Both the position numbers and the translations under genes were made by a program. The notes below the pieces were generated by a model that was not told the origin of the DNA, ran no database searches, and saw only the letters and a program-made list of their open reading frames with translations. This document shows, one piece after another, positions 12,320-59,515 of a stretch of 64,000 nt of DNA; position 1 is the first letter of the stretch, and the number at the start of each line of letters is the position of its first letter. Origin of the DNA: Salinispira sp. Its GTDB lineage: Bacteria > Spirochaetota > Spirochaetia > DSM-27196 > Salinispiraceae. The DNA is taken from NCBI GenBank assembly GCA_965602015.1, contig OZ271918.1:224001-288000 (forward strand), written 5' to 3'.

Positions 12320-12892
12320 CTAACTGCTGGCCTGGACCGTAAGAAGCAGGCTGTACACCCCGCCTTCCCCGAGAAATGAAAAATCGACCACAACTCTTCC
12401 GTCAGGTATTCGCCACTGGGCTTCCTTCACCTTGTAACCCCGGTGCGCCTTTTCGGCCGGATTGATGAACTCATTATGACCCTGATCTTCCCTCCAGGGC
12501 GTACCGTAGAGCACGCTGTACTTGTTGATAAAATCATTGGCAGCCTGATACGTCCGTTCGAACAGATCTGCAGACACATCGGTCTGGTGAGCGTTGAACA
12601 TAAACCAGCTGAGTCGGTCTCCGTGAAATGAATATACCCAGCGGCCGGGAATGCCGAACTCCCTGCTTTGGCGGATGAACTGATCCCCCTCATTGACCCG
12701 GGCCTGGGGGTACAGAGCACGAAAATCATCAATACTCATTCCCAGCCGTATTCCGCGTTCCGCATCGGACGAGGAGGAATACCCTTGGGATATTTCCTGT
12801 TCTGAAGGATTGCAGGAAAGCAGCGCAAAACTAATTGCCGCAATAAGGGCGGACCTCATGATGAATCTCAGCGGGAGCGTAAACCTGGTCAT
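12320..12892 (-). CDS. Hypothetical lipoprotein
   Basis: Hydrophobic leader ending in LLSC (lipobox-like); start may be the later ATG (MRSALI...). Confidence 0.6.
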   Translation of the reverse strand: MTRFTLPLRFIMRSALIAAISFALLSCNPSEQEISQGYSSSSDAERGIRLGMSIDDFRALYPQARVNEGDQFIRQSREFGIPGRWVYSFHGDRLSWFMFNAHQTDVSADLFERTYQAANDFINKYSVLYGTPWREDQGHNEFINPAEKAHRGYKVKEAQWRIPDGRVVVDFSFLGEGGVYSLLLTVQASS

Positions 12893-12976
12893 ACGGGTGT
12901 GTATCCTGAAGTGAATTGGGTATGATTTTATATCAGAAAATCACCACCGCTGTCAATTTAATATGAAGTGATGGTA

Positions 12977-12994
12977 TGAAAGCGGTGCCTCCCC
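12977..12994 (+). repeat. Left sub-terminal inverted repeat of IS copy 1
   Basis: tgaaagcggtgcctcccc, exact reverse complement of 14252-14269. Confidence 0.95.
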
Positions 12995-13045
12995 CGAGAT
13001 CCTGCCAGTCAGGGTCTATATTAAATACCGGAGGAGGACAACCAA

Positions 13046-14098
13046 ATGAGTAGTATTATTATATCCCTCGACAGCCATAAACGGTATACCGTGGCTGCAA
13101 TTGAGGACGAAAAAGGAAGGAAATCCTCACAGCGCATAGAACATTCTCACGGGTGTATTCGTGATTTTCTCCAACAATTTGAGCCGGGACAGGAAGTCGC
13201 ACTTGAAACAATCGGAAGTTGGTACTGGATTGTGGATGAGATTGAGGAGGCCGGCATGAACCCCTTGCTGGTACATGCCGGTAAGTCAAAATTGATGATG
13301 GCCATGTTTAACAAAACTGACAAACTCGATGCTGAAGGTCTCAATAAACTTCAAAAAGCAGGCACACTGCCTACTGTGTGGATTCCACCAGGAGAATTGC
13401 GTGATAAACGAGAACTCTATCGAACCCGGATGCAGTTCGTTCAGGAGTTGATACGTGAAAAGAACCAAATTCATGCCGGGTTCGAGAAATATGGGTTTCG
13501 ATTCAATGATGTGAGCGATCTGTTCGGAAAAGCAGGTACAGAAGCCATGAAGAAGGTAATGCCAAAACTCCCCGAGCATACCCGCACCATGATGAAACTC
13601 AAGCTCGATAATCTCGCGTTTATTAAGCAATCTATCACCGACTGCGAACAACGAATGCATGAAGCGTTTGATGAAAATGCTGAAATGAAGTTGGTGAAAT
13701 CCATTCCCGGGATCGGATTTATTCTCAGCGCAGTCATTGTGCATGAAATTGGAGACATACATCGCTTTAAGACCGCTGAACATTTTGCATCATACTGTGG
13801 TACAACGCCGCGCGTTCACTCGAGCGGAGGTAAAACTCATTATGGTCGAACATCGAAAGCATGTAATCGATACTTGAAGTGGGCACTTACTGAAGCAGCT
13901 AATGTAACCTGTCTTAATCAAAGAAATTGGGCGAACCGACATACGGTAAAACTCTACAAGAGAGTTCGTACTAAACGTAATCATAAGGTTGCAATAATCG
14001 CCGTGGCACGGCACTTAGCAGAAGCAATATTTTGGATATTGCAGAAAGAACAGCATTACAAAGATCCTGCATTAGCGGGTTTGTCCAGACAGGGGTAA
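13046..14098 (+). CDS. IS110-family DEDD recombinase/transposase
   Basis: RuvC-like DEDD residues D9, E54, D92, D95 (SLDSHK, ALETIG, KTDKLDA); C-terminal IPGIG...YCGTTP...HSSGG with predicted catalytic Ser; GGAGGAGG ribosome-binding site. Confidence 0.96.
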   Translation: MSSIIISLDSHKRYTVAAIEDEKGRKSSQRIEHSHGCIRDFLQQFEPGQEVALETIGSWYWIVDEIEEAGMNPLLVHAGKSKLMMAMFNKTDKLDAEGLNKLQKAGTLPTVWIPPGELRDKRELYRTRMQFVQELIREKNQIHAGFEKYGFRFNDVSDLFGKAGTEAMKKVMPKLPEHTRTMMKLKLDNLAFIKQSITDCEQRMHEAFDENAEMKLVKSIPGIGFILSAVIVHEIGDIHRFKTAEHFASYCGTTPRVHSSGGKTHYGRTSKACNRYLKWALTEAANVTCLNQRNWANRHTVKLYKRVRTKRNHKVAIIAVARHLAEAIFWILQKEQHYKDPALAGLSRQG

Positions 14099-14251
14099 GC
14101 GCGTTTTTGGGGCTACAGCGCGAATACGAGGCTGTGCAAAGTGATTGCGACACCCCTGGAAGGACATTTTCATGCCACGTGGATGGCGGAGATATGACTC
14201 GGACAAAACCGATTTGCAGAATTTTTGTAATAGAACATTGAAAACTCTTGC
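14082..14251 (+). ncRNA. Putative bridge/seek RNA of IS copy 1 (ends approximate)
   Basis: Stems 14082-86/14162-66, 14090-96/14152-58, 14114-19/14131-36; loop segments match the target (14103-14113, 14139-14143) and the donor junction (14168-14177, 14190-14197). Confidence 0.75.
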
Positions 14252-14269
14252 GGGGAGGCACCGCTTTCA
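14252..14269 (-). repeat. Right sub-terminal inverted repeat of IS copy 1
   Basis: ggggaggcaccgctttca, followed by gata and then the target TG. Confidence 0.95.
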
Positions 14270-14273
14270 GATA

Positions 14274-14416
14274 TGCCCCCAAAACAGCTGATATTGTGCG
14301 CTAAGTATCAATCCTGGCTGGAAATGCAAATGAAGTGACAAAAAACCTTGAGATTAGTCCCTTACTTCTTGTTCTTAAGGCATTTGCATCAATTCCATCA
14401 GCTGTTTTGGGGGCAC
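14274..14416. repeat. MITE/REP-like element with ~20-bp terminal inverted repeats; left tip interrupted by IS copy 1
   Basis: tgcccccaaaacagctgat (14274-14292) and atcagctgttttgggggcac (14397-14416); internal complementary segments tgcaaatg/catttgca. Confidence 0.8.
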
Positions 14417-14445
14417 TACCAATTTGACAAAGGCCGGGGAGGCAA

Positions 14446-15303
14446 TCAAAGCAGCTCCCGCAGCTTACCGATGCTCAGGGGGGCACAGCCTTCGTAGTGA
14501 TTATTAACATTGATAATCGTTTCAATACCCCGTTCTTCGAGCATGCGGGCAGCCTTGGCTATGAGCATCAGGTCGTCATCCATGGGGCGGATTATTCTTC
14601 CCCATTTTTTTTCGCTGAGCCGGTCCATTTCTTTGCGTTCGGGCCCGTGCAGACGAAGCACCACGGGGGCCTTTGTGCCAATATCTGCAATAAAGCTCTC
14701 AATGGTTTTGTATGCCGGAGGCAGGTAATACCCATGGATCAGTACCGGTGAAATCGAGTATCGGTCGAGCAGACGGAAAAATCCGCCGCTGAAATACTGG
14801 GGATTGCGGATTTCGACGCCGAACCAGGGTTCATTTTCCGAACGGATATCTTCGGGGAGTGAGGAGAAAAAATCCTCCAGAAGATTCATAAAGCTGTCGG
14901 CGCCGGTCATCTTCCGCTTATTCAAATACTCAAACTGGAACATCAACACCCGGGTTTTGGGAATTATCGGAGAGAGTCTTCGCAACACCTCCTCCAACAC
15001 ACTCCGGGATAAAAAGTCCGGGTTGATTCTCAGGGGACCGCCGGATCCCCGATAGTGGGTGAGGCTCAGGCTGTCCGGGAGCTTAATGGTGAAGCGGAAA
15101 TCCTCGCCCACGCTTGCCGAGTAATCCAGCGCCGTTGCGCTGTCGGGAAGCTTTGTTCCCCCGTCAAATAGGCTCCAGAACCACTGATCTATTTCAACGG
15201 TGGAAAAAAGACGGGAGTACTCGGAAAGATAGTTTTCGCAGTCCGGGGAATATACGATGTCAGTCCATTCAGGATACTTCCAGCTGCAGGTTCCAATACG
15301 CAT
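14446..15303 (-). CDS. DUF72 domain protein
   Basis: MRIGTCSWKY..W, TVEID, F.FTIK, VEIRN, LRLHG, NNHYEG. Confidence 0.88.
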   Translation of the reverse strand: MRIGTCSWKYPEWTDIVYSPDCENYLSEYSRLFSTVEIDQWFWSLFDGGTKLPDSATALDYSASVGEDFRFTIKLPDSLSLTHYRGSGGPLRINPDFLSRSVLEEVLRRLSPIIPKTRVLMFQFEYLNKRKMTGADSFMNLLEDFFSSLPEDIRSENEPWFGVEIRNPQYFSGGFFRLLDRYSISPVLIHGYYLPPAYKTIESFIADIGTKAPVVLRLHGPERKEMDRLSEKKWGRIIRPMDDDLMLIAKAARMLEERGIETIINVNNHYEGCAPLSIGKLRELL

Positions 15304-15367
15304 AACTACAGTATAGTGTTTCCCGAGAAATTTGACCCGGAGCATGCTTACTGATATAACGGATGGT

Positions 15368-24292: not shown

Positions 24293-24313
24293 AAATCAGC
24301 TGTTTTCGGGGCA
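24293..24313 (-). repeat. Solo copy of the dispersed terminal repeat
   Basis: aaatcagctgttttcggggca. Confidence 0.85.
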
Positions 24314-25067: not shown

Positions 25068-25090
25068 GTGCCCCGAAAACAGCTGATTTT
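25068..25090 (+). repeat. Solo copy of the dispersed terminal repeat
   Basis: gtgccccgaaaacagctgatttt. Confidence 0.85.
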
Positions 25091-53908: not shown

Positions 53909-53913
53909 TATCT

Positions 53914-54057
53914 GTGCCCCCAAAACAGCTGATTTTATGACCGTAAAACAAGGTGTGAGAATGATGTACACGATTTTTGGCGATGAGCGAAATGAACGGC
54001 AGCTAATTCCTGTCCCGAAAAATGATTAGTCGGTTTAAATCAGCTGTTTTCGGGGCA
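53914..54057. repeat. MITE/REP-like element with terminal inverted repeats; right tip interrupted by IS copy 2
   Basis: gtgcccccaaaacagctgattt (53914-53935) and aaatcagctgttttcggggca (54037-54057). Confidence 0.82.
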
Positions 54058-54079
54058 TATCTGAAAGCGGTGCCTCCCC

Positions 54080-54249
54080 GCAAGAGTTTTCATTGTTCTA
54101 TTACAAAAATTCTGCAAATCGGTTTTGTCCGAGTCATATCTCCGCCATCCACGTGGCATGAAAATGTCCTTCCAGGGGTGTCGCAATCACTTTGCACAGC
54201 CTCGTATTCGCGCTGTAGCCCCAAAAACGCGCTTACCCCTGTCTGGACA
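54080..54249 (-). ncRNA. Putative bridge/seek RNA of IS copy 2 (ends approximate)
   Basis: Same guide-like segments as copy 1; one visible substitution, outside the guides. Confidence 0.72.
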
Positions 54250-55285
54250 AACCCGCTAATGCAGGATCTTTGTAATGCTGTTCTTTCTGCAATATCCAAA
54301 ATATTGCTTCTGCTAAGTGCCGTGCCACGGCGATTATTGCAACCTTATGATTACGTTTAGTACGAACTCTCTTGTAGAGTTTTACCGTATGTCGGTTCGC
54401 CCAATTTCTTTGATTAAGACAGGTTACATTAGCTGCTTCAGTAAGTGCCCACTTCAAGTATCGATTACATGCTTTCGATGTTCGACCATAATGAGTTTTA
54501 CCTCCGCTCGAGTGAACGCGCGGCGTTGTACCACAGTATGATGCAAAATGTTCAGCGGTCTTAAAGCGATGTATGTCTCCAATTTCATGCACAATGACTG
54601 CGCTGAGAATAAATCCGATCCCGGGAATGTATTTCACCAACTTCATTTCAGCATTTTCATCAAACGCTTCATGCATTCGTTGTTCGCAGTCGGTGATAGA
54701 TTGCTTAATAAACGCGAGATTATCGAGCTTGAGTTTCATCATGGTGCGGGTATGCTCGGGGAGTTTTGGCATTACCTTCTTCATGGCTTCTGTACCTGCT
54801 TTTCCGAACAGATCGCTCACATCATTGAATCGAAACCCATATTTCTCGAACCCGGCATGAATTTGGTTCTTTTCACGTATCAACTCCTGAACGAACTGCA
54901 TCCGGGTTCGATAGAGTTCTCGTTTATCACGCAATTCTCCTGGTGGAATCCACACAGTAGGCAGTGTGCCTGCTTTTTGAAGTTTATTGAGACCTTCAGC
55001 ATCGAGTTTGTCAGTTTTGTTAAACATGGCCATCATCAATTTTGACTTACCGGCATGTACCAGCAAGGGGTTCATGCCGGCCTCCTCAATCTCATCCACA
55101 ATCCAGTACCAACTTCCGATTGTTTCAAGTGCGACTTCCTGTCCCGGCTCAAATTGTTGGAGAAAATCACGAATACACCCGTGAGAATGTTCTATGCGCT
55201 GTGAGGATTTCCTTCCTTTTTCGTCCTCAATTGCAGCCACGGTATACCGTTTATGGCTGTCGAGGGATATAATAATACTACTCAT
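54233..55285 (-). CDS. IS110-family DEDD recombinase/transposase
   Basis: Identical to the copy 1 protein except S219Y (KSIPG to KYIPG). Confidence 0.96.
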   Translation of the reverse strand: MSSIIISLDSHKRYTVAAIEDEKGRKSSQRIEHSHGCIRDFLQQFEPGQEVALETIGSWYWIVDEIEEAGMNPLLVHAGKSKLMMAMFNKTDKLDAEGLNKLQKAGTLPTVWIPPGELRDKRELYRTRMQFVQELIREKNQIHAGFEKYGFRFNDVSDLFGKAGTEAMKKVMPKLPEHTRTMMKLKLDNLAFIKQSITDCEQRMHEAFDENAEMKLVKYIPGIGFILSAVIVHEIGDIHRFKTAEHFASYCGTTPRVHSSGGKTHYGRTSKACNRYLKWALTEAANVTCLNQRNWANRHTVKLYKRVRTKRNHKVAIIAVARHLAEAIFWILQKEQHYKDPALAGLSRQG

Positions 55286-55367
55286 TTGGTTGTCCTCCTC
55301 CGGTATTTAATATAGACCCTGACTGGCAGGATCTCGGGGGAGGCACCGCTTTCATACCATCACTATG

Positions 55368-59476: not shown

Positions 59477-59515
59477 AAAATCAGCTGTTTTGGGGGCACG
59501 CCAGTTTTGGGGCAC
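59477..59515 (-). repeat. Solo copy of the dispersed terminal repeat plus a partial tandem duplicate
   Basis: aaaatcagctgttttgggggcac (59477-59499), then gttttggggcac (59504-59515). Confidence 0.82.

Follow-up and report, generated by a model that had tools for sequence, protein, structure and literature searches.

An IS1111-type insertion sequence at a fixed AG^TG site, mostly within the terminal repeats of an IS1-like element and its MITEs, in Salinispira sp.

The Locus and Its Elements

The stretch of Salinispira sp. DNA analyzed here, called the window, is 64,000 nucleotides long. It holds two copies of an IS1111-type insertion sequence, each lodged in a MITE, and five further copies of the MITE repeat that are empty (Table 1). 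The two insertion sequence copies differ at 2 of 1,307 bases compared. Copy 1 and its MITE are intergenic, lying between an unannotated 190-aa ORF and a DUF72 family gene (14446–15345, minus strand) that adjoins the MITE. A first-pass annotation, made from the letters of the window alone, started copy 1 at 12961; that position falls in the flank, and the left core is at 12969.

The element's recombinase matches PF01548 (40.2 bits) and PF02371 (93.7 bits) above the Pfam cut-offs, and NCBIfam model NF033542 at 226.8 bits against a cut-off of 140. In an alignment of 37 homologs, residues D9, E54, D92 and D95 are invariant and S260 is near-invariant. We take these five to be the catalytic residues. 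With its RuvC-like DEDD and Transposase_20 domains, its TG-only core, and its fixed site and orientation, the element is a member of the IS110 family. Against the IS621 and ISCro4 structures (PDB 8wt6, 9t56), only the C-terminal part of the recombinase aligns (E 2e-11).

The sub-terminal inverted repeats are perfect over 18 bp. This exceeds both the 11–13 bp given as usual for the IS1111 group in PMC11187229 and the 7–17 bp quoted in PMC11208160. Outside the perfect repeats lie 8 bp on the left, core included, and 4 bp on the right, against 7 and 3 in the IS1111 group; the extensions become 7 and 3 if one more, mismatched base is counted into the repeat. The non-coding DNA extends 174 nt from the stop codon to the end of the right repeat, as against 69 nt from the left repeat to the start codon. 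Sub-terminal repeats together with a long non-coding right end are the IS1111-type anatomy, as described in PMC11187229.

The genome (G000) carries 10 copies, with mutual differences of 0–14 bases and a target-guide region identical in all 10. The tenth copy arose by tandem duplication, in which 255 bp of left flank was copied along with the element (C1:3399413-3402533); its right core joins a chromosomal TG 255 bp upstream, with neither AG nor a CCCC match. It was left out as an independent site, leaving nine. Another copy (C1:1706983-1709279) is split by a 1,310-bp element and has lost about 319 bp of the recombinase 5′ region. The interrupting element is present in seven identical copies, with an IS3-like integrase-core ORF recognized by eye. 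That locus is mobile DNA nested three layers deep.

Table 1. Features of the window, in window positions; guides and donor loop are predictions.
Feature	Position	Strand	Remarks
Displaced outer ~5 bp of MITE 1 left terminal repeat	12964..12968	+	ends AG; same five bases precede TG in the MITE at 464379
IS1111-type element, copy 1, both TG cores included	12969..14275	+	1,305 bp counting one core
Copy 1 left core TG	12969-12970	+	
Left sub-terminal inverted repeat	12977..12994	+	18 bp, perfect
DEDD recombinase ORF, IS110 family	13046..14098	+	350 aa; Pfam and NCBIfam profile matches
Predicted right-target guide, 5′ guide of target loop	14104..14113	+	complement of target top strand from core G; covariation +1..+6
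Stem-loop between target guides	14114..14136	+	equivalent hairpin in aligned relatives; in centroid fold
Predicted left-target guide, AAAG plus core UG	14138..14143	+	AAGUG in the first-pass annotation; covariation -4..-1
Predicted donor loop	14165..14196	+	read by eye from alignment
Predicted right-donor guide, weak	14165-14172		by eye
Predicted left-donor guide	14190-14196		by eye; matches element right end
Right sub-terminal inverted repeat	14252..14269	+	18 bp, perfect
Copy 1 right core TG	14274-14275	+	
Host MITE 1	14274..14420	+	~142 bp between TGs; repeat 14274-14292 occupied
MITE 1 inverted repeat	14397-14415		unoccupied, AG present; outer bases run to 14420
Solo repeat	24295..24313	-	empty; AC before TG
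Solo repeat	25069..25087	+	empty; GG before TG
Host MITE 2	53910..54057	-	repeat 54039-54057 occupied
MITE 2 partner repeat	53915-53933		empty, without AG; TG before TG (CT-GTG in the first-pass annotation)
IS1111-type element, copy 2	54056..55362	-	ORF 55285-54233
Copy 2 cores	left 55362-55361, right 54057-54056	-	
MITE 2 displaced outer bases	55363-55367		
Solo repeat	59480..59498	-	empty; CG before TG (GC-GTG in the first-pass annotation)

The Host Repeat

The occupied repeat is found in 123 copies in the genome at ≤1 mismatch, 119 of them exact. Twenty-two of them are the ends of a 1,247-bp element, in 11 paired copies; 58 are the ends of 29 units of 132–144 bp; 8 form palindromes of 41–46 bp; and 35 are solo. 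The four palindromes (201919, 400647, 2356764 and 2681483) are perfect or near-perfect and consist of two host repeats head-to-head; they are probably minimal deletion derivatives.

The 1,247-bp element is present in 12 copies that are 96–98% identical by BLAST. Its 377-aa ORF is transposase-like, with zinc-ribbon and HTH features. The protein scores 35 bits against the IS1 model NF033558, below the cut-off of 100, so the element is labeled only "IS1-like" here. Thirty-one of 32 homologs match the same model at E ≤ 0.01. Pfam gave no IS1 match, and a profile search of the PDB returned only zinc-finger matches at E > 0.1. Conservation among the 32 homologs of D128 and D219 (invariant) and E269 (near-invariant) is only suggestive of a DDE/RNase H catalytic core.

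The units of about 142 bp are short, gene-less and multicopy, and they have terminal repeats in common with the 1,247-bp element, as expected of MITEs; their paralog families are 69–94% identical. A REP or REPIN identity, which would call for a conserved GTAG/GTGG foot with a self-palindromic stem in a repeat that does not end a DDE-type IS, was considered and rejected, as bases −5 to −3 vary and the repeat bounds 12 transposase-coding elements. The dispersed repeat forms the terminal inverted repeats of a second transposon, IS1-like, and of its ~142-bp MITEs.

Of 99 genomes of the order, 40 contain a homolog of the host transposase. The repeat itself was found in one other of the 60 relatives searched, a member of the same genus (G001, 63 copies). 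Many of the G001 copies read TGCTCC rather than TGCCCC, a change within the right-guide span. A protein query found no close copy of the recombinase in G001 (83% complete) or in a second relative, G002.

Where does the host end lie? Placing it at TG, G or AG, next to a short target duplication, was tried and dropped, since the 11 paired host elements show no consistent duplication there. A scan of 400 offset/length combinations over 45 paired elements, with a shuffle control, gave a different answer. A 9-bp duplication (≤1 mismatch) at offsets 5/5 outside the TGs is present in 6 of the 45, whereas 100 shuffles gave a mean of 0.18 and a maximum of 1; the remaining 39 elements lack it. Duplications of 8 bp at offsets 6/5 and 5/6 are present in 8 and 7 of the 45, respectively. 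In a related family in G002, 9–10-bp duplications at 5/5 were seen by eye in two of eight copies. The IS1 family itself is characterized by terminal repeats of ~23 bp and target duplications of 8–10 bp. AG^TG therefore probably lies between bases 5 and 6 of a host end of about 24 bp, rather than at the repeat tip, where the first-pass annotation had placed it. Insertion 5 bp inside would be expected to disable that host end.

In G000, and likewise at the loci examined in G002 (L255–L262), the outer ~5 bp of the host end vary among copies that are otherwise 96–98% identical; the variants are common to several copies, and the duplication lies outside them. The tip of a transposon end is normally the cleavage site, so variability there is unusual.

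Insertion Sites and Junctions

All 10 genomic copies have AG^TG at the left junction, all at AG^TG-CCCC and in a single orientation. At the nine independent sites, the two junctions share exactly TG. Beyond it the bases differ, G versus A on the left and A versus C on the right; that is, nothing outside the core is duplicated. Both window copies have AG on the left and the 19-bp repeat on the right, and excision of either in silico restores AG^TG plus the repeat. The window's first reading, that the two copies share one AG^TG position and orientation and duplicate no more than TG, is thereby borne out and extends to the whole genome.

Seven of the nine sites are in the main 19-bp repeat. The site at 1709279 has the same position in a second repeat family, which matches the main repeat to +7 and then diverges; this family bounds units of about 110 bp as well as the end of a truncated host-transposase homolog at 2757300. 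The intergenic site at 331372 is without a paralog in the genome and resembles the repeat no further than +10; it may be a chance match or what remains of a deleted MITE. Insertion into non-repeat DNA is seen at this one site of nine, the other eight being in host-like repeat ends. Three of the nine sites are at ends of the IS1-like element. The hosts are of several kinds: one or the other end of the IS1-like element, three MITEs whose interiors are unrelated, a solo repeat, the second family and unique DNA. The outer flanks differ among all of the sites.

The copy 1 locus in G001 has neither the insertion sequence nor the MITE; at 68–76% identity it is too distant to set boundaries. In place of an empty allele, the assignment of the copy 1 junction is supported by a 94%-identical empty MITE at 464379, whose five outer bases are those found immediately left of copy 1. 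Among the joints listed, neither a circle junction nor a joint bypassing the element was seen; these joints came from contigs of four runs of one sample, a source in which rare circles would not show.

Predicted Guides and Their Covariation with Targets

Two target guides are predicted in the non-coding region downstream of the recombinase gene (Table 1), the complement of the target top strand coming first and the match to the bottom strand following. The same order, with the top-strand complement 5′ of the bottom-strand match, is described for the IS1111 group in PMC11187229. The guides predict the target AAAG^TG-CCCC-AA.

To follow guides and targets across the family, relatives of the recombinase were collected; a single-protein search of contigs found none, and an alignment query did. 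The set comprised 160 loci at 48–58% identity plus two others (L005 and L006), 162 in all. Both ends were obtained at 111; the 51 dropped were loci with ends not found (37), short flanks (11), or a missing ORF or anchor (3). Parsing of 110 loci by target-independent anchors gave 76 distinct guide pairs, which came down to 71 relatives once the element itself was taken out along with four rows that had no core base in the right guide.

In these 71, the guide base agrees with the locus's own target at positions −4 to −1 in 64, 67, 62 and 69 cases (shuffle means 21–35) and at +1 to +6 in 70, 67, 58, 50, 44 and 34 cases (shuffle means 18–41). None of 2,000 shuffles reaches these matches, a significance that is overstated, as the relatives are not phylogenetically independent. 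When only the 25 relatives that do not belong to the dominant TG^AC class are considered, the covariation is retained, with 22, 25, 22 and 24 matches at −4 to −1 and 24, 21, 23, 22, 23 and 16 at +1 to +6. Position −5 also covaries (42 of 71) and is no longer significant in those 25. Positions −6 and +7 to +9 are at chance. An extension of the right guide beyond +6 was rejected on the latter ground, although +7 is A at all nine sites here. The left guide proposed at first pass, AAGUG, corresponds to 14138–14143, where each guide position covaries with the left target in 62–69 of the 71 relatives.

The fit of the guides to the element's own sites is less good than that of the relatives' guides to theirs. 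Position +5 mismatches the guide at all nine used sites (a G would wobble), and the four bases of the left guide are fully matched at only one of the nine. No site in the genome matches both guides exactly. Five sites have AG and an exact match to the right guide; all are empty, and the number is small.

The donor loop was read by eye. An earlier by-eye candidate for the right-donor guide was abandoned when the alignment of relatives put part of it in a stem. The predicted RNA region folds no better than shuffled sequence (z −0.49 to −0.6), and Rfam gave no match in 12800–14600.

The relatives' targets are of interest in themselves. The ..RA^TGAC class, REP-like by eye, accounts for 68 of 111. 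Four relatives (L108, L134, L136 and L138) have an attC-like RYYYAAC just left of the core, and three (L063, L073 and L173) have GTAG^TGCCAAC, close to the target here. Some relatives have tRNA-like flanks; ARAGORN called none among the 111.

Choice among Sites

Among the five empty repeats of the window, AG precedes TG only at 14415; the dinucleotide is AC at 24313, GG at 25069, TG at 53915 and CG at 59498, as the first-pass annotation had noticed. In the window by itself the association of AG with occupancy (two of two occupied repeats versus one of five empty) is weak evidence, with P about 0.14 by hand calculation. Genome-wide counts, proposed at the same time as a check, give a modest enrichment: AG is present in 7 of 7 occupied and 67 of 116 empty main repeats (one-sided Fisher P = 0.025), and in 8 of 8 versus 73 of 123 when the second family is included (P = 0.019). 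When all TGCCCCNAA sites are counted, 9 of 82 with AG are occupied versus none of 156 without AG (P = 5e-5, for a class chosen after the sites had been seen). Repeat ends lacking AG are occupied at 0 of 49, and all 22 paired host-IS ends carry AG.

The 82 AG^TGCCCCNAA sites are made up of 73 in the main repeat (7 occupied), 8 in the second family (1 occupied) and 1 in other DNA, which is occupied. As 81 of the 82 are repeat ends, a sequence match alone explains the bias toward repeats.

A further feature of the used sites lies outside the guided region. Bases −10 to −6 are A/T at 44 of 45 positions over the nine used sites, versus 73% at the 73 empty AG sites. In a permutation test with host types as strata, P is 2.5e-4, for a post hoc feature seen by eye with four windows tried. 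The flanks of relatives do not suggest such a bias family-wide. We consider it likely that an A/T-rich outer flank helps insertion, because the guides pair imperfectly with every used site.

The repeat ending at 14416 had been singled out at first pass as the best remaining target. It is indeed the sole empty copy with AG in the window; across the genome it is one of 73 empty AG sites. Its left-guide match is two of four, the lowest class, to which 47 of the 73 belong. Its outer flank is fully A/T, as in 19 of the 73. Seven empty sites elsewhere are better on both counts.

Proposed Mechanism and Alternatives

Four things are established here: where the copies sit, that their core is TG only, what the repeat is, and that guide and target covary across relatives. 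We propose that the IS1111-type element inserts into AG^TG-CCCC sequences, for the most part within the terminal repeats of IS1-like elements and MITEs, and that it likely picks these sites by pairing of an RNA guide that it encodes. We put the probability of this reading at about 0.88.

The steps would be as follows, in keeping with what is known of the family. The element would be excised or copied out as a circle, as descriptions of related elements suggest (PMC11187229, PMC11208160, PMC13626964, bioRxiv 10.1101/2025.10.25.684509). The circle junction would create a promoter, for which TTGCGG-N18-TATGAT, read by eye, is a candidate. The 3′ non-coding region behind the recombinase gene would then be transcribed, and the RNA would bind the DEDD recombinase. 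The target would be recognized by pairing of the right guide to its top strand and of the left guide to its bottom strand, and recombination at TG would leave one core at each junction. Repeat ends would be targeted because nearly all matching sequences of the genome are there, not because of their structure; the copy in non-repeat DNA, which matches the guide span only, indicates that repeat structure is seemingly not needed. The benefit to the element may be a plentiful intergenic safe harbor, as described for IS5075 (PMC8269217).

Could something other than the guide bring the element to these ends? Paired repeats, or ends bound by the host transposase, might recruit the recombinase, with the guide only fine-tuning the site. 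The eight of nine sites in host-like family ends and the imperfect pairing at every used site are what this proposal expects, and the one non-repeat site may be a MITE remnant. Against it, two families whose sequences part after +7 are occupied to a similar degree (7 of 73 and 1 of 8), a solo repeat is used, the only AG^TGCCCCNAA site outside repeats is occupied, and repeat ends lacking AG go unused. On balance we regard such recruitment as improbable. Still more so is the proposal that the AG is merely host consensus without a role and that targeting is by TG-CCCC-N-AA alone, to which we give almost no credence: AG is indeed carried by every paired host-IS end and by more than half of the empty repeats (67 of 116), and the within-family P is only 0.025, but non-AG TGCCCCNAA sites are never used, and of the 71 relatives, 62 and 69 agree with their own target at left-guide positions −2 and −1, respectively.

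The copies might also not have been targeted independently: the host IS or MITE could have transported the element within a composite, or recombination between repeats could have spread it. Three sites are at the ends of a mobile host IS, and one copy did arise by tandem duplication with 255 bp of flank. Yet the host is different at each site and the outer flanks are all different, and the element copies are 0–14 bases apart while their host MITEs are only 69–94% like their paralogs. The distinct hosts and flanks largely refute this proposal, which we hold to be very improbable.

Within the guide-pairing account a bolder reading can be framed, which we offer as doubtful. The element would be a hyperparasite whose guide is exact for no genomic target, which reads ends common to two IS1-like families, and which picks among about 80 equal sites by the A/T flank 6–10 bp outside the guided region; its cut 5 bp inside would leave the cleavage tip and the binding site of the host on opposite sides of the insertion, which would immobilize the host. 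If true, the system would be a natural readout of the non-guide determinants of bridge recombinases and a brake on another transposon.

Comparison with Known Systems

That an IS1111-type element can lodge in the terminal repeat of another mobile element is familiar from IS4321/IS5075 onward, and the guide-RNA mechanism of 2024 accounts for it. The present case is a clear further example of what has been described for IS4321/IS5075 and for the Coxiella IS1111, and it is not surprising. A literature search that reached few subscription journals showed no published instance in which the ends of an IS1-like element are the target of an IS1111-type element. What the present case adds is a well-mapped natural guide–target pair, with a TG core and the IS1111 guide order, in a clade distant from the characterized bridge and seek recombinases. 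In addition, a single genome with about 80 near-identical targets, nine of them used, is a test set for mismatch tolerance and flank effects.

IS4321 and IS5075 target the terminal repeats of Tn21 (PMC11187229, PMC8269217). As here, an IS1111-type element is fixed at one position of the terminal repeat of another mobile element, look-alike sites outside the repeat are also used (ureC there, 331372 here), and the safe-harbor logic applies. The host there is a Tn3-family transposon, whereas here it is a small IS1-like element with its MITEs in a spirochaete-type genome. The target sequence differs as well, and here two related repeat families are used.

In Coxiella burnetii, 20 of 21 IS1111 copies are within the MITE QMITE2, and the 5′ bases of the MITE are split off to the other side of the insertion sequence (PMC5896051), as seen here. 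The QMITE2 target is described in that source as a GTAG REP palindrome 10–20 bp in. In contrast, the cut here is about 5 bp inside a linear terminal repeat, and the autonomous parent is present, in 12 copies.

The seekRNA elements ISEc11, ISKpn4, ISPa11 and ISPst6, as set out in PMC11187229, are alike in that non-coding DNA follows the transposase gene, the inverted repeats are sub-terminal, the first of two target guides is the top-strand complement, and the target is not duplicated. The present element differs in clade and target, in its 18-bp repeats (11–13 bp being usual), and in having a guide RNA that is predicted. With the bridge recombinases of IS621 and ISCro4 (PMC11208160; PDB 8wt6, 9t56) it has in common a DEDD recombinase, a dinucleotide core, and separate target and donor loops. 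The IS621 RNA is encoded in the left end and the core is CT (PMC11208160), whereas the present element has its predicted RNA in the right end, a TG core and the opposite guide order.
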